DNA from: an uncultured virus (IMG/VR IMGVR_UViG_3300031733_000001) | Taxonomy: Duplodnaviria; Heunggongvirae; Uroviricota; Caudoviricetes | Strand: one strand, 5' to 3' | DNA: 20,000 nt | IMG/VR virus record: IMGVR_UViG_3300031733_000001 | Shown here: piece by piece, positions 5,757 to 17,572 of the stretch | Layout: each line of letters starts with the position of its first letter | Numbering within the stretch: position 1 is the stretch's first letter | Translations under genes and position numbers: made by a program | Notes under the pieces: model-generated | The model's input: only the letters and a program-made list of their open reading frames with translations | The model's database searches: none | Told to the model about the DNA's origin: nothing

Positions 5757-6009
5757 TGCGTGCATCCTCCTCGTTGTCCAGGAAAGCCCTCACGTCCTGG
5801 ATGTTATTCTTGACCCCGACCAGCTCGGGGCGGCTGTCGGGACCTGGGTGCTCCAGGATGACATACGCCTGGTTCACCGGGCTCCACAACACCTCGAACC
5901 CCATGTCCCGAGCACGAACGATGACCCCTTCGGGTCCGCGCCCGGCCTCCTTGCAGGGACCACACAGAATGCCAAACGTCCCTCGACCACACACACGACA
6001 CTTGGGCAT
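5743..6009 (-). CDS. small zinc-finger protein (88 aa)
   Basis: AAAGGAG RBS; CRVC-x8-CGPC at the N-terminus. Confidence 0.75.
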   Translation of the reverse strand: MPKCRVCGRGTFGILCGPCKEAGRGPEGVIVRARDMGFEVLWSPVNQAYVILEHPGPDSRPELVGVKNNIQDVRAFLDNEEDARNEPE

Positions 6010-6038
6010 GAGCTACATCTCCTTTCTCCTGTATTGCT

Positions 6039-6046
6039 CTTATACC
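6039..6046 (-). promoter_or_regulatory. putative phage promoter core GGTATAAG
   Basis: CTTATACC 6039-6046, intergenic, upstream of an RBS; lacks the upstream AAA at the usual spacing. Confidence 0.65.
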
Positions 6047-6083
6047 GTTGTTTGTGAGCTAAGGAATGGAGGTGATCAGCCTC

Positions 6084-6596
6084 CTAGTAGAGCGCGCAGG
6101 AGCTGTCGTCGTGTGGGTAGTGGCCCATCACGAGATCGCCCTTGCGGTTGATGATCCCCGTGATCCAGCCGCCCCAGCGACTCTCACGGTGGAACATGAT
6201 CTTCTCCCCGGTGGGGAGCGTGGCGATGAAGTCTCTGTACTCGTTGGCGTCTCGATTGGGCACGACCTTCGTGCCCTCCGGCAGCACGATGTCGCAGACG
6301 TGGGTCTTGCTGCGCCCATCGAACGCCTCCCAGAGGTCACCCTCCCCCTCGTATCGGGCACCGATTCTGGTGAGGTAGGACTTCTCTCTGGTGTCGAACT
6401 CCATGCTCCACAGCTCGTTGTCACAGGGCTTGATCCACTCCAGGTTGCACCAGTAGAGGAACAGCTCTGTGTCATCACTGCTGCGGATCACGGATACTCC
6501 ACGATCACAGGCGCCATCGAAGATGCCTGTTTCCGGTAGCAGCTCGTCCTCGAGCTTCCACCGGAGCTGCCGTGCCTTGATGTTCACAGGATCCAT
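6084..6596 (-). CDS. hypothetical protein (170 aa)
   Basis: AAAGGAG RBS, ATG at 6596. Confidence 0.8.
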   Translation of the reverse strand: MDPVNIKARQLRWKLEDELLPETGIFDGACDRGVSVIRSSDDTELFLYWCNLEWIKPCDNELWSMEFDTREKSYLTRIGARYEGEGDLWEAFDGRSKTHVCDIVLPEGTKVVPNRDANEYRDFIATLPTGEKIMFHRESRWGGWITGIINRKGDLVMGHYPHDDSSCALY

Positions 6597-6617
6597 AATG
6601 TCTCCTTTCCTACTATT

Positions 6618-6678
6618 CTTATGCCCCGAGGACCCTACGATTTTCGATCTTGACAGCAGTGATCATCGCTGAGATGGT
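6618..6678. promoter_or_regulatory. divergent promoter pair: minus AAAA-N15-GGCATAAG and plus TTGACA-N17-GATGGT
   Basis: CTTATGCC 6618-6625, TTTT 6641-6644; TTGACA 6650-6655, GATGGT 6673-6678. Confidence 0.6.
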
Positions 6679-6701
6679 AGCAGCACAACGTGGAGGATCA
6701 A

Positions 6702-7163
6702 ATGATCACAGAGGCCGACATCAACAACTGGTTCGAGTACCACAAACCGAGTGAGAGTCAGCTCCCTCTCTACTCCAAGCTGCGGGAGGCAGCCAAGTCA
6801 TTCGCCCAAGTGGTGATGGAATGCACGCCACCCAGCCCAGATCAGACCACCGCCATCCGCAAGATCCGCGAGGCGGTCATGACCGCCAACGCCGCCATCG
6901 CCTGTGACCAGCTGCGCATCGACATCGAGGAAGTCGCTGGCGTGGTCACCTTCAGGTCCTACTGGCGCACATCCGAGCAGGACAACATGATCGGCAAGTA
7001 CGATCTCTCCAAGATGGAGATTATGGCGGTGGGCAACGTGCGGAAGCTGCTGCACACCTTCGTGAAGCAGACGGTGGGCATCATCGACAACCACCAGGTG
7101 CGGGAGGAGCGTGTGTGGAAGGCGGTCGAGCAGGCGTGTCACTCCAAGAGCCTTTCCTGGTGA
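6702..7163 (+). CDS. Acb2/Tad1-like hairpin-domain protein (candidate immune-signal sponge) with C-terminal extension (153 aa)
   Basis: GGAGG RBS then ATG 6702; NNWFEYHKP...Y..LREAAK.FA......PPSPDQTTAIRKIREAVMTANAAIA matches the family pattern F.YH.P...R....A...P.S....A..k..ea.m.ANaaIA as recalled. Confidence 0.65.
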   Translation: MITEADINNWFEYHKPSESQLPLYSKLREAAKSFAQVVMECTPPSPDQTTAIRKIREAVMTANAAIACDQLRIDIEEVAGVVTFRSYWRTSEQDNMIGKYDLSKMEIMAVGNVRKLLHTFVKQTVGIIDNHQVREERVWKAVEQACHSKSLSW

Positions 7164-7339
7164 GTAAGTACTACTACATGAGTCTCACGGACGATGAGCT
7201 GGAGGAGCGCAAGAAGTTGGAGGAGCGCCGTTCCGTCAGAGCTATCCGTCCACAAGATCGAGCCATCGCCGCCAAGAACGTCGAGGCCATCATCGCAGAG
7301 CAGGCCAGGCGCTTCGAGGAGAAGCATGGGCTAAAGTAA
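7160..7339 (+). CDS. small charged helical protein (59 aa)
   Basis: GTG 7160 overlaps the upstream TGA (GTGA). Confidence 0.6.
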   Translation: MSKYYYMSLTDDELEERKKLEERRSVRAIRPQDRAIAAKNVEAIIAEQARRFEEKHGLK

Positions 7340-7364
7340 GGGGACCAGGTGCACCTGGTCCCCT
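7339..7364. terminator. perfect 26-bp palindrome at a convergent junction
   Basis: AGGGGACCAGGTGCACCTGGTCCCCT is its own reverse complement. Confidence 0.65.
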
Positions 7365-7484
7365 ACTCTCCCGCTCACCTCCTTGAGGGGTTGTCGGTTG
7401 GGGCGCTCATTCATAGGAGGTCGCCCAGGCTCCTCAGCCGATCCACTGGTGGGTTAGCCAGCCTCCTTGTTTTGGTCCAGGGTA

Positions 7485-7492
7485 CTTATACC
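7485..7492 (-). promoter_or_regulatory. putative phage promoter core GGTATAAG with no clear downstream gene
   Basis: CTTATACC 7485-7492 overlaps the TAA of the upstream ORF; followed by AAGGAGG without a well-spaced start codon. Confidence 0.5.
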
Positions 7493-7782
7493 TCGATCCT
7501 CCCTGTCCCTTCACACCTGGAGCAGCAACGGTCGCCCACGAAGCCACCCTTGCAGCTCTTGCACTTCACGTACTTCCTGGGTGGCTCCACGCGCACCTCG
7601 CGCTTCTCCCACGGCATGACGCACAACAGCTTGATGAACTCGACTTGATCTGGAGCCATGGACTTGGCGATCTTCTCAGCCTCCTCAGCCGTCTTGAAGG
7701 GGCCTGACCACCGGTCGGCGGCCCGGCCTTCGTTGAACCACCACCCGACCGGCATACCCTGGATGATGTGGGGCTCACCCAT
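7486..7782 (-). CDS. hypothetical protein with C-terminal DnaJ-type zinc-finger repeats (98 aa)
   Basis: ATG 7782 overlaps the thyX end; CKSCKGG...CSRCEGTG. Confidence 0.75.
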   Translation of the reverse strand: MGEPHIIQGMPVGWWFNEGRAADRWSGPFKTAEEAEKIAKSMAPDQVEFIKLLCVMPWEKREVRVEPPRKYVKCKSCKGGFVGDRCCSRCEGTGRIEV

Positions 7783-9595
7783 CGACGATCGTCCTTTCGA
7801 GCTGAGGGAGCGTAGACAGCTTCTTGATGATTTGGTCAAGCAGCTCGCTGTCGATCGCTGCCGCGGGCTCCGTCTCACCACGCATGGCACCGCGCACGCC
7901 GTTCAAGATAGACCACACCGCGTGGCGCTCCTTGTTGGAGAGCGTGGCGGCGTAGAGACGGTGCTCCTCGAACGCCTTGAAGGCCATCGGAGCCACGTCC
8001 TTGGCCAGCTCGTACATCTTGTTGGCGTACTGCCTGATCTCCCACTGGGCGTGGGGGTGGAGGCGCAGGCCGCAGAAGTGGAAGAAGTTGTGCAGATCGA
8101 TCTTCCAGAACCACTCCGTGTAGGCAGCAAGCGGGAGGTTGAGCCGGGCGAGCTCGTTGGCCAGGCCAGTGTCGGCGAGCCAGGCGTAGTCGTCCCAGGC
8201 CACCCGCTGACCCTCCTCGAACCGCTTCTGGATCAACTCCTTCAGCTCGATCTCGAGGCCGCCCTCGGTGCCCTGCTTGTTGCTCTTGCCCTTGCCACCC
8301 ATGCGCCCGTAGCCGGGCACGTAGCTCTCACTCGGGAGAAGGCGGTAGCGTCCGCTCATCTCGTTGAGCGAGGCCGTGCGGTGGCGCACCCACTGGCGGG
8401 CCACGAAGATGGGCATGCGCGCCCGAAACACCAGCTCCACCTGCTCGAATGGGCTCGTGTTCCCACAGACGAAGGCGAACTTGTCCGCTCCGCCACGCAC
8501 CATCAGCAGCCCAGTGGAGCTGGTAGCACAGTAGACCTTGCCCTTGTAGTACCTCTTGCTGAAGTACTCCTTCCTCGCCTCCAGAGACGTACGCTCACCG
8601 TGATAAGCGGTGGACCCAATCGATGTCCGGTGAGCGTCCGTCCCCAGCAGAGCGGAAAGCACCTCAAACAGATCGAGGAGCTTCTCAGAGGAACTGGAGA
8701 ACTGCGTCTGCGGCCGGTCATCTTTCTCCGAACCATCCGAATTGATCAGGCCGTCGTACAGCCCGATGACCTCTCCGTGGTCCAGCAGATGGACAGTATC
8801 CAGAGGGAAGTTCTTGTCCTTCGCGCGGAGGGTGACGTCGATGTACCCCTTCATCCATTCGGGGGTCCTGATGGTGAAGACGACCGCGTCCGAGTAGGTG
8901 GAAGATTGTCGTTCATCCCACTTCGCCTCCACCTTCTTGAGCAGATCCCTGAGATAGACTTTCTTCCGCTCCTTCCGGATGTGGAAAGTGATCGTATTCA
9001 GGCTGCCGTAGCTCCCATCCCCCAGGTAGAAGCCGATGAACTGCATCTTCGGGTCAGTCTTCGTGTCAAACTGCACCCAGTGATAGCCCTTCAGAGGATC
9101 GAAGTGACCCCACTTCGACATGTTGTGCGCTCTGAAGATGTCGAACTCGGACTGTCCACGGGGCCTGAACCACATCCGATGGTCATCAGTCACGCAAAAG
9201 GACATCCTCTGGTTCTCGTAGGCAATCATCTCCTCATCCGCGTCGAATACCTCGAGCTGAAGCAGCTCACGTTTGAGGGTCCGGTTCTTCGGGTCTGGTA
9301 CCAGGAAAACCTCCTCCCCCTCGCACTCGTCCCACTGCTTCCAGCCCTTGATCGTCAGGACCTGCATTGTGGGGTGGTAGCAATGGCGGTTGGCCATCAT
9401 GTAGTTGATGATCCGCTTGATCCCCTTCTTGGTCTTCTTCTCCGCCTCGACCTCGTCGATGCTGGAAACCCAAGCCGCCTCGGCGATGCGCTGGTCCCCA
9501 CCCATGTAGTCGACCAGGCAGACGAAGCCGTGATCAAGTACCTGGTGTTTGACTCCCAGGTTGCTGTCAGCCCTCTTGTTGGTGGTGTGTCCCAT
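7775..9595 (-). CDS. thyX: flavin-dependent thymidylate synthase ThyX, intein-containing precursor (606 aa; 298 aa after splicing)
   Basis: AAGGAG RBS and ATG 9595; VLDHGFVCLVDYMGGD, H|TSPFE, MPIFVARQWVRHRTASLNEMSGRY (RHRx7S motif), ELARLNLP, LRLHPHAQWEIR. Confidence 0.97.
   Translation of the reverse strand: MGHTTNKRADSNLGVKHQVLDHGFVCLVDYMGGDQRIAEAAWVSSIDEVEAEKKTKKGIKRIINYMMANRHCYHPTMQVLTIKGWKQWDECEGEEVFLVPDPKNRTLKRELLQLEVFDADEEMIAYENQRMSFCVTDDHRMWFRPRGQSEFDIFRAHNMSKWGHFDPLKGYHWVQFDTKTDPKMQFIGFYLGDGSYGSLNTITFHIRKERKKVYLRDLLKKVEAKWDERQSSTYSDAVVFTIRTPEWMKGYIDVTLRAKDKNFPLDTVHLLDHGEVIGLYDGLINSDGSEKDDRPQTQFSSSSEKLLDLFEVLSALLGTDAHRTSIGSTAYHGERTSLEARKEYFSKRYYKGKVYCATSSTGLLMVRGGADKFAFVCGNTSPFEQVELVFRARMPIFVARQWVRHRTASLNEMSGRYRLLPSESYVPGYGRMGGKGKSNKQGTEGGLEIELKELIQKRFEEGQRVAWDDYAWLADTGLANELARLNLPLAAYTEWFWKIDLHNFFHFCGLRLHPHAQWEIRQYANKMYELAKDVAPMAFKAFEEHRLYAATLSNKERHAVWSILNGVRGAMRGETEPAAAIDSELLDQIIKKLSTLPQLERTIVDG
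8459..9382 (-). mobile_element. intein with LAGLIDADG homing endonuclease (308 aa) in thyX
   Basis: Begins CYHP (Cys1); block B VTDDH; LAGLIDADG motifs FIGFYLGDGS and YDGLINSDGS; block F YKGKVYC; ends VCGN followed by Thr+1; removal restores NRH-TSPFE. Confidence 0.95.
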
Positions 9596-9944
9596 ATAGC
9601 TTCTCCTTCTCGTCCAGGAACTGGTTTCTCGCTTCGTCCGTTCGTAGGAGGATCCTGAGACCTTCTGTACAGGCGCCGTCCGGTTGTGCGCAGATCTCAC
9701 AACCAGCCAGGTGGGAACGCCACTTCATGCCCCACCGATTCCACCTGCGGAACTTGCGCAGATACGGGATCTTCCTCCCTCGCTTGAGGGCCTCTTTCAA
9801 GGTGGTGTCCCGGATGTTGCCCAGGATGAACACCTCTGGGTGGTCTCTCGCCGCATCCTTGCACGCTGGACAGGGGATGATGTCGCCAGTCGGCAAGACC
9901 TCCAGCTTGGTCACGCCGGCGTTGCAGATGTGTTCGTCCCCCAT
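9567..9944 (-). CDS. stand-alone SPASM/twitch-like Fe-S binding domain protein (125 aa)
   Basis: ATG 9944 overlaps the radical SAM TGA; CNAG...LPTGDIIPC (Cx12Gx4C), ILGNIRDTTLKE, later CEIC-x6-C. Confidence 0.8.
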   Translation of the reverse strand: MGDEHICNAGVTKLEVLPTGDIIPCPACKDAARDHPEVFILGNIRDTTLKEALKRGRKIPYLRKFRRWNRWGMKWRSHLAGCEICAQPDGACTEGLRILLRTDEARNQFLDEKEKLYGTHHQQEG

Positions 9945-10753
9945 CAGATGTCGAGTCCGGCTTCTGTGGGCACCTCGATGCCCACGATCTTCTTGATGCT
10001 CTCCTTCCACTTGACCAGGGAATGGTCCTTCAGCCGTCGATACAGCTCGTGGATGGCGTCATCGTTCCAGGCCCCCTCGAGGAAGTTGGCGGCGTTGATG
10101 GCCGCCGGGGGAGCCTTGTTGATCTTCAACCTCGCCGCAGCATGGTTCATCTTCCCGATCCAGATGGCGTCGGTGATGTAGGGGTAGAAGGTGTCCACCG
10201 CCTGGATGGTGCTGGGGATGTCTGGGCAGAGCAGGGGCTCCATGCTCACGCTGGTCTTGAAGCCGGCGCGCTCGGCATAGACCAGACAGAAGATGCGCTC
10301 GGCGACCGTGGGAGCGAAGGGCTCCCACATACCCAGCACGCTGGGATCGATGCTGCCGATAGTGAACCGGAACAAGATCTGATCCTCATAGCCCTCCACC
10401 GCCCTGGTGAGCTGCTCGATCACCTCCGGGTGCGGCTTGGACACCACCAGCACCCTGTTCCCCACCCTCAGCAGGCTCTGGAGCACGGCGATGGTGTACT
10501 TCATGTTGCCGGGCGTGAGATCGTGCTGGGTGGGGAACATCACGGTCCCCTCTCGCTTGCCGAACCGCTTGTGGATCTTGTCCGGAATGGGCTTATCGTT
10601 CGTCCAGTCCTCGGTGTCCTTGGTCTTGGTGCGGCCGGAGGCTGTGGCACGTGCGTAGCAGTACCAGCAGCCATTGGAGCAGCCGCTCATGCAGTTGACG
10701 GACGAGTGGGACCACTCCCTGGTCCCGCTCACCCCTTTCTTCGTCTCAGCCAT
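9944..10753 (-). CDS. radical SAM protein, SPL-like/DUF5131-like (269 aa)
   Basis: GGAGG RBS, ATG 10753; NCMSGCSNGCWYCYA (CxxxCxxC), VLVVSKP, FRFTIGS, SMEPLL. Confidence 0.88.
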   Translation of the reverse strand: MAETKKGVSGTREWSHSSVNCMSGCSNGCWYCYARATASGRTKTKDTEDWTNDKPIPDKIHKRFGKREGTVMFPTQHDLTPGNMKYTIAVLQSLLRVGNRVLVVSKPHPEVIEQLTRAVEGYEDQILFRFTIGSIDPSVLGMWEPFAPTVAERIFCLVYAERAGFKTSVSMEPLLCPDIPSTIQAVDTFYPYITDAIWIGKMNHAAARLKINKAPPAAINAANFLEGAWNDDAIHELYRRLKDHSLVKWKESIKKIVGIEVPTEAGLDI

Positions 10754-10754
10754 T

Positions 10755-11045
10755 TCAGTCCTCCGGTAGTCTGTTGATGTGAACCCCCAAGCACTCGTGG
10801 ACCATCGTGTCGAGATCACCGATGCATCTGCAGCCGTAGTCCTCCCTGATCTGCTCACACTCCTTGCAGTTCTTCACGGTGAACCATGATCCGTCGCACC
10901 GGCCCGTGTGGACATGATAGTGATCCCCCCTCTTGATGTCAGCCCCACACTCGTCGCACTTGTGGCCCTTGCGCGCCTTGCGGATCTTGGTCCTGTGGAC
11001 GGTGATCGGCTCGAGATCTAGATCACAGGGGCAGCTAGCTTCCAT
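10755..11045 (-). CDS. phage zinc-finger protein (96 aa)
   Basis: GGAGG RBS; KARKGHKCDECGADIKRGDHY...CKEC. Confidence 0.8.
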   Translation of the reverse strand: MEASCPCDLDLEPITVHRTKIRKARKGHKCDECGADIKRGDHYHVHTGRCDGSWFTVKNCKECEQIREDYGCRCIGDLDTMVHECLGVHINRLPED

Positions 11046-14671: not shown

Positions 14672-14854
14672 CTAGTCCTCCTCTCTGAGTCTGATCTTCT
14701 GGATGTAGCGGATACGCTCATCGAGTTCCCGCAGATTCTCGCACACGCAGTCCATGCTACGTCCCCGCTCCTTCCACTCCACCAAGTAGCCTGTCCAACG
14801 TGTGACCTTGATCTGCGATCCCTCGGCCTTCTTCTTCAGACGCTTGAAACTCAT
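14672..14854 (-). CDS. small basic hypothetical protein (60 aa)
   Basis: GGAGG RBS, TGATG coupling. Confidence 0.7.
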   Translation of the reverse strand: MSFKRLKKKAEGSQIKVTRWTGYLVEWKERGRSMDCVCENLRELDERIRYIQKIRLREED

Positions 14855-15375
14855 CAGTCCTCCACTATCACCAGGGGTTCGTCACCCGTGGCCTTGCCGT
14901 GGTCTATCCAACCGATGTCCACCCACTGCTTCTGCTCCCCATCGATTTCCACGGGCTGGGGCAGGTGGTCGACGTGGTCGGCGAAGTTCGGCAGGTTGCT
15001 GCGCCTGATCTGCAAGCGGCCGTCGAGGCGCAGCTCCATGCGCTTGCGGAGCCAGGGCTCCATCTCCTTGAGCAGCTTCTCGCTCCTCTCCTTTGCCCCG
15101 TTCGAGGCCCTCTCCGGTTTCCTCTTGGTGCGCTTCACGAGCTTGAGGGCCTCCCTGATGTGCTTGATGCGACTGGGGTGCAACAGCTTGCGAGTGCCCC
15201 TGTACTCGAGCTGTCGAGCGCGCTCTGGCCCCACCGGGGGGTCGAGACCTGCGCCCGCTTGCTTCAGAGTGCCCCCGCAGAGCCGACTGATAATCACAGC
15301 TCGTTCTCTAGGGCTGATGGTTGAGAGGGCCTGTCGCAGGCCCTCCAGCAGCTTCTTCGTATCGATGTCGATCAT
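14854..15375 (-). CDS. stand-alone sigma70 region 4 HTH protein with unrelated C-terminal domain (173 aa)
   Basis: ALSTISPRERAVIISR...TLKQAG...VGPERARQLEYRGTRKLLHPSR aligns with RpoD region 4 ([22 protein letters not shown]); no region 2. Confidence 0.85.
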   Translation of the reverse strand: MIDIDTKKLLEGLRQALSTISPRERAVIISRLCGGTLKQAGAGLDPPVGPERARQLEYRGTRKLLHPSRIKHIREALKLVKRTKRKPERASNGAKERSEKLLKEMEPWLRKRMELRLDGRLQIRRSNLPNFADHVDHLPQPVEIDGEQKQWVDIGWIDHGKATGDEPLVIVED

Positions 15376-16336: not shown

Positions 16337-17572
16337 TCACTTCATCCGACGCCGGTGGTCCTGAACCATCTTGTAGTAGGTGGTCCAGATCTTCCCGGAG
16401 TCCGTCTTGAACGTGTCTGACGCTTTCTTGTTGCCTTCCTGTGTCACGTCATCTGCGAACTGCACCATCTTCGGGCCCACACGCTTCCACACCCGGACCA
16501 CACGCTCGAACGGTATCTCCCAGGAGTACTTGCCGCTGGGTGTGACCACCAGGAACTGGCGGAATGCGGACATCATCGCGAAAGCCGGTCCCTTGGCCAA
16601 CTTTGTAGACCCGGTAGTCCCCAGGATGGGGAACTTGTACACCTTGGGCCTCCTCTTGACCGGATTGCCGTTGCGGTCATGGACACCCGGCCCTTTGGCC
16701 CACGTCGCATTGTCAGCCGAGGTACTGGCATTGATCATGCCGTAGCCATCCATGGAGATCTGCTCGAAGAGGCGCCAGAAATCCGGGAGCAGATGGAGCA
16801 TCCCGGCGAAGTTGGACCGCTTGGCCTCATGTCCGTAGGCGGCGATGATCGAACCGACCGAACCTACCGAGTGCGTGGGATGACGCGTACCGTCCGGGTA
16901 GTCGTGACGGTTGAACGCCTCCATCAGCACGACGTTCTCGCCGATCTCGTATTCCAGCTTCTTCACCTTCTTCTCGTTCCCCAGGCAGCCGAAGTGCTGG
17001 AGGATGTCGGCTTTCTCCAGCACCACCTTGATGCTGTCGAATACCCCGAGGTTGTTGAGAAGTGCCGCGTTGGTGACTTGCACGTTGGTGTTCAAGGCCT
17101 TTGCCACAGTGTGGATGAGGTACCGCTTCATGTTGACGATAGCGTGGAAAGGCATGTACTGATCGATCGGTTCTCCATCCTCGATCATCCTCAGAATCTT
17201 CTCTTTGTTCTCGAGGGCCGCCCTGTACTGGTGTGCGCCATTCGGTATGCCCCAGTTGCCCCCGTTGAGGAACGACACCTCCGTGGCTTTTCTCGCCTTG
17301 TTCGCCTGGAGATCCGTGGTGATGATCGTGATGCCCCCACTCCCAAGGTTGTAGGAGTTCTGGAGTTTTGGCTCGAGCCCAATGTTCAGCTGAGCATCGC
17401 TAATACTCCGGTAGACCGGCGAGCTTGTATCCTGCACGCGCACATTCGGCCTCAGGTTGATACCCTCTGGTATCTCATGGATGGGTGTGTACCACTGGTA
17501 ATGCGCGATTCTCTCCCGCACTGGATCGTTCCAGCTCACCAGCTCTACACATGGAACAGTGATTCTCTTCAT
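16337..17572 (-). CDS. divergent AIPR-family (ParB/DndB-like fold) protein (411 aa)
   Basis: PNVR...VYRSI, GGITII, GIPNGAHQY, ALNTNVQV occur in the order of AIPR motifs (NVR, NNGIT, I.NG.QT/DGGHT, N.q..V). Confidence 0.75.
   Translation of the reverse strand: MKRITVPCVELVSWNDPVRERIAHYQWYTPIHEIPEGINLRPNVRVQDTSSPVYRSISDAQLNIGLEPKLQNSYNLGSGGITIITTDLQANKARKATEVSFLNGGNWGIPNGAHQYRAALENKEKILRMIEDGEPIDQYMPFHAIVNMKRYLIHTVAKALNTNVQVTNAALLNNLGVFDSIKVVLEKADILQHFGCLGNEKKVKKLEYEIGENVVLMEAFNRHDYPDGTRHPTHSVGSVGSIIAAYGHEAKRSNFAGMLHLLPDFWRLFEQISMDGYGMINASTSADNATWAKGPGVHDRNGNPVKRRPKVYKFPILGTTGSTKLAKGPAFAMMSAFRQFLVVTPSGKYSWEIPFERVVRVWKRVGPKMVQFADDVTQEGNKKASDTFKTDSGKIWTTYYKMVQDHRRRMK

Follow-up and report, generated by a model that had tools for sequence, protein, structure and literature searches.

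Does the 153-aa protein encoded at 6702-7163 of the window, i.e., of the whole 20,000-nt stretch of DNA that was analysed, belong to the phage proteins that capture immune signals of the host, and what may the residues following its N-terminal hairpin and an overlapping 59-aa gene add to such a function? Acb2 and Tad1 are small helical oligomers that sequester the cyclic oligonucleotides of CBASS, and Tad1 additionally sequesters the Thoeris signal gcADPR. Sponges of the Acb2 family are a main means by which phages overcome immune systems that rely on signalling, such as CBASS and Thoeris. As described below, the architecture found here is new and the family is known: the 153-aa protein is a member of the Acb2 family of sponges that is already catalogued, and it carries a rare extra domain.

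Genomic context of the cassette

The G+C content of the window is about 59%, and its long open reading frames (ORFs), among which family matches are scarce, are located nearly all on the minus strand. Two plus-strand ORFs, 6702-7163 and 7160-7339, are flanked by the minus-strand genes 6084-6596 and 7486-7890 and are referred to as the cassette (Table 1). The source is probably a large uncultured phage. Megablast of positions 6000-8000 against isolated phages gave no match, i.e., there is no close isolated phage at the DNA level, and tblastn with two neighbouring proteins returned one weak match for one of them and none for the other. The nearest virus record has 63% of the sampled words in common with the window, and the cassette is identical in it letter for letter. 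Contigs from four further public runs, originating from four studies, carry the cassette DNA with 0 differences and no variants, showing that the cassette is not an assembly artefact. Identical DNA covering 6400-7700 was moreover observed in several metagenome runs of different studies labelled rhizosphere, so that this phage is encountered repeatedly in separate data sets. In a profile search of the six-frame translated window, 6702-7163 was the sole match and a second copy of the hairpin gene was not found.

Table 1. Features of the cassette and of selected genes in the 20,000-nt window.
Feature	Position	Strand	Details
Candidate -35 box TTGACA	6650-6655	+	in 105-nt divergent intergenic region 6597-6701
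Shine-Dalgarno sequence GGAGG	6692-6696	+	5 nt upstream of ATG 6702
Acb2-family gene, 153 aa	6702-7163	+	ATG 6702 to TGA 7161-7163, stop included
Acb2/Tad1 hairpin domain, residues 1-68	6702-6905	+	Y13, H14, R28; helices 4-11, 21-41, 46-67
C-terminal domain, residues 69-153 (85 aa)	6906-7160	+	three antiparallel strands, then helices
Companion gene, 59 aa	7160-7339	+	GTG start, TAA 7337-7339; GTGA overlap with stop of the main gene
Exact palindrome GGGGACCAGG-TGCA-CCTGGTCCCC	7340-7363		10-bp stem, between convergent genes
134-aa ORF, convergent with the cassette	7486-7890	-	C-terminal CxxC...CxxC cluster, zinc-ribbon-like
ThyX thymidylate synthase, 641 aa	7775-9700	-	Thy1 Pfam match only from residue 413 on
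Two overlapping ORFs, radical-SAM/SPASM pair	9567-10858	-	SPASM 29.2 bits; radical SAM 21.5 bits against cut-off of 29.5
Sigma-70 region-4-like gene	14854-15375	-	below Pfam cut-off; PHROG 351 sigma-factor match
411-aa protein, borderline AIPR (abortive-infection phage-resistance)	16337-17572	-	24.7 bits against cut-off of 25

The minus-strand genes of the window show some peculiarities of their own. The ThyX protein is interrupted by an insert of roughly 290 aa, which has no Pfam family and contains the LAGLIDADG-like string GFYLGDGS. On account of this string, the insert is likely an intein carrying a homing endonuclease. The radical-SAM/SPASM pair may represent a single radical-SAM enzyme that is split by a frameshift or by a mis-set start. 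The AIPR match of the 411-aa protein is unusual for a phage genome, and for the zinc-ribbon-like 134-aa ORF no family match was obtained.

Gene structure and expression signals

The start codon assigned to the main gene corresponds to the same starting residue in ten full-length homologs. The G+C content at the third codon position amounts to 0.86 in the main gene and 0.75 in the 59-aa gene, the neighbouring genes ranging from 0.73 to 0.83. Since both genes of the cassette are encoded on the plus strand and the genes around them on the minus strand, the cassette needs a promoter of its own. The first-pass annotation had assigned a TTGACA promoter to the unit. The hexamer is present in the divergent intergenic region (3 copies in the window versus 8.75 expected) and this part of the assignment stands; a -10 partner of the form TANNNT was not found 16-18 nt downstream, and the promoter scan has no entry for this region. 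In view of the sigma-70 region-4-like protein encoded at 14854-15375, promoter recognition may be under the control of the phage itself, and this could be the reason why no host-type -10 box precedes the cassette.

The palindrome that had been described at the end of the unit was recovered as an exact one. The 61-nt stretch containing it folds with -29.7 kcal/mol (z -4.1), a stability that none of 200 shuffled sequences reached. It is not followed by a T-run on the plus strand, and it is likely a two-way transcription stop. Taken together, the 153-aa gene and the overlapping 59-aa gene form a small unit on the opposite strand to their surroundings, which has a ribosome-binding site of its own, probably also a promoter, and ends in a hairpin.

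The N-terminal hairpin domain belongs to the Acb2 family

The N-terminal motif and the about 85 extra residues following it, on which the first-pass annotation had built its proposal, are both present in the 153-aa ORF, the motif residues being F11, Y13, H14, P16, Y24 and L27-R28, then A51 to A67. A search with the Acb2/Tad1 hairpin profile, suggested from the outset as a check, was positive: Pfam family PF24729 matches residues 13-68 with 47.3 bits at a cut-off of 27, spanning profile positions 2-58 of 58, and residues 1-68 alone reach 49.7 bits, the bona fide Acb2 of JBD67 scoring 59.6 bits with the same model. Furthermore, phrog_1454 matches the 153-aa protein at 9.7e-17. In a search over 5.8 billion proteins, which covers proteins of at least 84 aa, PF24729 was present in all relatives found (129/129). 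Four relatives of the 153-aa protein show 84-68% identity to it.

The full-length AlphaFold2 model, calculated from an alignment of 108 sequences, has a pLDDT of 92.3 and consists in its N-terminal part of a short helix followed by two long antiparallel helices. This helix layout of residues 1-68 is that of the Acb2 protomer (PMC12043709). Among 48,161 chains compared by VIA-align, the top match was 9ptq_A (Z 7.1, rmsd 1.2 Å over 59 residues, model residues 11-69), which is Acb2_43 in complex with 3'cADPR and, of the matches with low rmsd, the only one whose alignment extends to the segment preceding helix 1. Other matches were T4 Vs.4 (Z 6.3) and PaMx33 Acb2 (8h2j, Z 5.8). The VIA-align result is consistent with the profile match without being a proof, as a Z of 7.1 lies in a range that is common for helical hairpins. 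A Foldseek search of the PDB with the full model gave nothing at E<=0.001, the weak rows being reverse transcriptases and COMMD proteins. In sequence searches of the PDB, neither the protein itself nor the 108-sequence profile retrieved a solved chain at E<=10, and the hhalign comparison of this profile with JBD67 Acb2 was not significant (probability 0.09%). Homology to the classical Acb2 proteins thus rests on the Pfam model. The assignment of the 153-aa protein to the Acb2 family can be regarded as firm. The prediction of a two-copy complex of the protein scored 0.38 against a mark of 0.42, with controls at 0.15, 0.00 and 0.00, and speaks neither for nor against such a complex.

Hadary et al. 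(2025; 10.1101/2025.08.24.671296) list the identical 153-aa protein among the Acb2 homologs in their Table S1 (sheet homologs_Acb2, row 521). In the same table the string MTANAAIA occurs 126 times and thus represents the consensus shared by a large subfamily. The second helix had been regarded as altered in the first-pass annotation; as its sequence corresponds to this subfamily consensus, this view has to be abandoned.

Residues of the putative ligand pocket

In PaMx33 Acb2, the cyclic dinucleotide is held by stacking of Tyr11 on its base and by salt bridges with Lys26, and each of the exchanges Y11A and K26A abolishes binding (PMC10312549). In Pfam coordinates, Tyr13 of the 153-aa protein and Tyr11 of JBD67 Acb2 both occupy profile position 2, and Arg28 and Lys26, respectively, both follow 15 residues later, the lysine being replaced by arginine in the 153-aa protein. 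The non-significant hhalign alignment with JBD67 Acb2 pairs the same residues, Tyr13 with Tyr11 and Arg28 with Lys26. For Acb2_43, the preprint names Thr4, His5, Leu6, Val7, Lys19 and Lys55 as ligand contacts (10.1101/2025.08.24.671296). In the ungapped VIA mapping, in which the number of the model residue equals that of the chain residue plus 9, His5 corresponds to His14 and Lys19 to Arg28, and two of the four side-chain contacts are not kept (Thr4 to Tyr13, Lys55 to Ala64). Phe11, Tyr13, His14, Pro16 and Arg28 are invariant across 11 full-length relatives. A pocket for cyclic trinucleotides like that formed with Arg67 and Thr74 of Acb2 was considered as well and was rejected, as the alignment with JBD67 Acb2 made by eye places no Arg/Thr pair there.

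The C-terminal domain

The first-pass annotation had described the hairpin as fused to an extra domain, and the fusion is borne out by the models and searches: the additional part is confidently folded, has no Pfam family and shows no clear structural relative. Folded alone by AlphaFold2 with 11 relatives, it reaches a pLDDT of 90.7, with three antiparallel strands preceding helices. The Pfam search with this domain gave no family at E<=1, and a single weak PHROG match was returned. Foldseek searches against PDB and BFVD yielded nothing at E<=0.001, and the ESM Atlas returned no usable match. In the VIA wide search the best match was 3hrd_G with a Z of 5.7, which is below the noise range of the tool, and the ribosomal, LOV and COMM-like rows were all within noise.

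The domain has a narrow distribution. A phmmer search of 1.84 billion representatives with this domain retrieved only 2 proteins at E<=0.001. Among the 120 relatives listed for the 153-aa protein, 24 have a length of at least 140 aa, and the C-terminal domain is covered only by P0001-P0011, corresponding to about 11 protein clusters. Two further loci were rejected: L082, because the locus ends inside the gene, and L121, because the match spans two separate ORFs of which the second part is unlike the C-terminal domain.

In the C-terminal domain, conservation is confined to a small number of positions, most of them hydrophobic (A79, F120, A141, A145), and the domain therefore looks structural rather than catalytic. 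This pattern of conservation suggests that it acts as a structural or binding module and not as an enzyme. Concerning its location, PaMx33 Acb2 was described to have a ligand-touching C-terminal tail (Pro90) after helix 2, and Acb2_43 to have the strand beta-2 at this place (10.1101/2025.08.24.671296). As the C-terminal domain starts right after helix 2, i.e., in the place of the PaMx33 tail and of beta-2 of Acb2_43, it would, by analogy, most likely be located at the vertices of the pocket, either covering the pocket like a lid or providing a further contact within the oligomer.

The companion gene

A partner gene of 59 aa had been described as coupled to the main gene by a GTGA overlap, and this description was upheld: the GTGA overlap is present, and the gene appears to be co-conserved. 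An alternative start at ATG 7178 would result in a protein of 53 aa. Five relatives of the companion protein were retrieved from the protein collection, with the C-terminal half being nearly invariant. Two of its homologs, with 87% and 81% identity, are encoded on contigs of 2341 and 2688 bases. As these two homologs and the two closest homologs of the main protein share their sources and the lengths of their contigs, the two genes probably co-occur, and the companion appears to be co-conserved with the main gene in two related contigs. In a tblastn search over 161 loci, the companion was found only in two copies of the same phage, the other loci being those of short-form relatives. Neither a Pfam family nor a function was found for the companion protein; one PHROG match has an E-value of 0.088, and the Atlas matches are at 0.82 or less.

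Related architectures and homologs tested previously

The hairpin occurs in further architectures. In three jumbo-phage contigs of 235-350 kb (L024, L025 and L027, 2992-3900, plus strand), a 302-aa protein starts with the FxYHxP...MTANAA hairpin, which is followed by a different extension of 235 aa without a Pfam family. Other fusions within the hairpin subfamily are those with an N-terminal HTH_3/HTH_31 domain (P0062), with a C-terminal RyR domain (P0095) and with an N-terminal part giving a weak Bro-N match (P0045). Fusion of the hairpin to HTH, RyR, Bro-N-like and 235-aa parts makes wider roles possible, such as ligand sensing or oligomerisation in proteins that are not plain sponges.

Experimental data on homologs are provided by Hadary et al. 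(2025; 10.1101/2025.08.24.671296), the counts given here referring to rows 1-62 of their Table S2, of which rows 1-44 are Acb2. Ten of the tested Acb2 homologs in that table, numbers 4, 14, 17, 20, 27, 33, 35, 37, 38 and 44, possess the x-Y/H/F-H motif before helix 1. In plaque assays, seven of these ten inhibit at least one CBASS system, and the other three were inactive in all seven systems (10.1101/2025.08.24.671296). In these rows, number 37 (147 aa), one of the inactive proteins, is the sole motif-sharing homolog with a long C-terminal extension (10.1101/2025.08.24.671296); this extension differs from the C-terminal domain of the 153-aa protein. In the main text of the study the terms "fused", "extension" and "additional domain" are absent, and fusions or extensions are not discussed. 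Among the papers listed by a literature search on Acb2 proteins with a fused C-terminal domain, none dealt with fusions of this kind.

Proposed function and alternative explanations

The 153-aa protein is probably, by analogy with the solved members of the family and with appreciable room for doubt, an oligomeric sponge of the Acb2 type for cyclic-nucleotide immune signals, to which a clade-specific C-terminal module has been added. It would assemble into a homo-oligomer, probably a hexamer as in the solved family members, and the immune signals would be held in pockets that form where paired protomers meet with their N-terminal segments. The likeliest ligands would be cyclic dinucleotides of CBASS, and possibly 3'cADPR of Thoeris. 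Sequestration of the signal would keep the effector of the host switched off, and the C-terminal domain at the vertices of the pocket would serve as a lid or as an added oligomer contact. A bolder version, which we consider speculative and unlikely, regards the C-terminal domain as a new accessory module that reshapes or caps the pocket or adds a second one, so that a signal beyond the known range of Acb2 is captured, with the 59-aa protein as a possible partner. If true, the accessory domain and the 59-aa partner would constitute a two-component sponge that has not been described so far.

Three other explanations have to be weighed against the Acb2-type sponge. The hairpin might be an oligomerising scaffold only, with the activity residing in the C-terminal domain, alone or together with the 59-aa protein, for instance by blocking a host protein. 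The occurrence of the hairpin in the HTH, RyR and Bro-N-like fusions and with the 235-aa extension fits such a role, as do the confident folding of the C-terminal domain on its own, its retention over about 11 clusters and the outcome for the extended homolog number 37, which inhibited none of the seven signalling systems (0/7). However, a mere scaffold would not need Tyr13, His14 and Arg28, which are invariant in the full-length clade, and the few, mostly hydrophobic conserved positions of the C-terminal domain and the failure of the searches to find any similarity to a known binding or enzyme domain argue against an activity located there; we regard this explanation as unlikely, though as one to be taken seriously. 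It is rather improbable that the protein is a family member devoid of counter-defence activity, either as a decayed copy or with another role in the phage. The three inactive proteins among the ten motif-sharing homologs in rows 1-62 of Table S2 illustrate that such members may exist, but inactivity in seven systems does not show inactivity against others, and decay is at odds with the 84-68% identity retained in four relatives, the invariant motif residues, the high third-position GC and the DNA that is identical across several independent data sets.

A Tad1-type sponge, i.e., a gcADPR-binding hexamer of dimers, is very improbable for this locus. PF24729 covers both families and the model contains a beta-sheet besides the hairpin, but the order of the domains is reversed, the protein starts like Acb2 with a short helix before the hairpin, and the exact protein was filed by Hadary et al. 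under Acb2 and not under Tad1.

Returning to the Acb2-type sponge, the value of the 153-aa protein is that of a candidate for experiment, from a small clade of uncultured phages.

Comparison with known systems

Tad1 shares with the 153-aa protein the helical hairpin covered by PF24729, and it is a sponge. The Tad1 protomer consists of an N-terminal four-stranded antiparallel sheet followed by two long C-terminal helices (PMC12043709). Unlike Tad1, the AlphaFold2 model of the 153-aa protein has the helices first (21-67) and three strands after them (71-103). As Tad1 has the sheet first and the helices last, the protein is of the Acb2 type and not of the Tad1 type. No Tad1 entry was among the 50 VIA matches listed for either the full-length or the C-terminal model. 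Hadary et al. treat Tad1 homologs as a set separate from Acb2 (10.1101/2025.08.24.671296). The original proposal of an Acb2/Tad1-type sponge can thereby be narrowed: the Acb2 half is retained on account of PF24729, the fold and the entry in Table S1, and the Tad1 half is dropped because of the opposite domain order.

The anti-CBASS sponge Acb2 of the Pseudomonas phages PaMx33 and JBD67 (PDB 8H2J) and the 153-aa protein have in common the Pfam family, the short helix preceding two long antiparallel helices, and an aromatic and a basic residue at a distance of 15 at the positions of Tyr11 and Lys26. In contrast to these proteins, the 153-aa protein has arginine instead of lysine, shows no significant pairwise or profile-to-sequence similarity to them, and carries an 85-aa alpha/beta domain in place of the short C-terminal helix and tail. 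Furthermore, Arg67 and Thr74 of the cA3 pocket of PaMx33 Acb2 are without a clear counterpart in the alignment made by eye.

Among the tested homologs, number 27 (76 aa; Hadary et al., 2025) resembles the 153-aa protein in the F-x-Y-H-x-P motif and in the REAVMTANAAIA helix, with 30 of 63 residues being identical as aligned by eye. In the plaque assays reported there it inhibits type I Thoeris and the CBASS of Y. aleksiciae, and it failed against the CBASS of E. albertii (10.1101/2025.08.24.671296). Number 27 is a single-domain protein, in contrast to the 153-aa protein with its C-terminal domain.

Acb2_43 (PDB 9PTQ), the best structural match, is a 3'cADPR-binding protein of 75 aa with inhibitory activity against type I Thoeris (10.1101/2025.08.24.671296). 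The 153-aa protein resembles it in the ligand contacts His5 and Lys19, to which His14 and Arg28 correspond, and differs from it in sequence (19% identity) and in the loss of the contacts Thr4 and Lys55. After helix 2, Acb2_43 as described there has just the short beta-2 strand, whereas the 85-aa domain follows in the protein described here. Small structural additions change the signal that is captured, as illustrated by Acb2_43, in which strands at the N- and C-terminus accompany the switch from CBASS signals to 3'cADPR. As a whole extra domain sits at the position of the C-terminal Acb2_43 strand, the 153-aa protein is a natural test case for how a sponge scaffold gains new specificities or partners.
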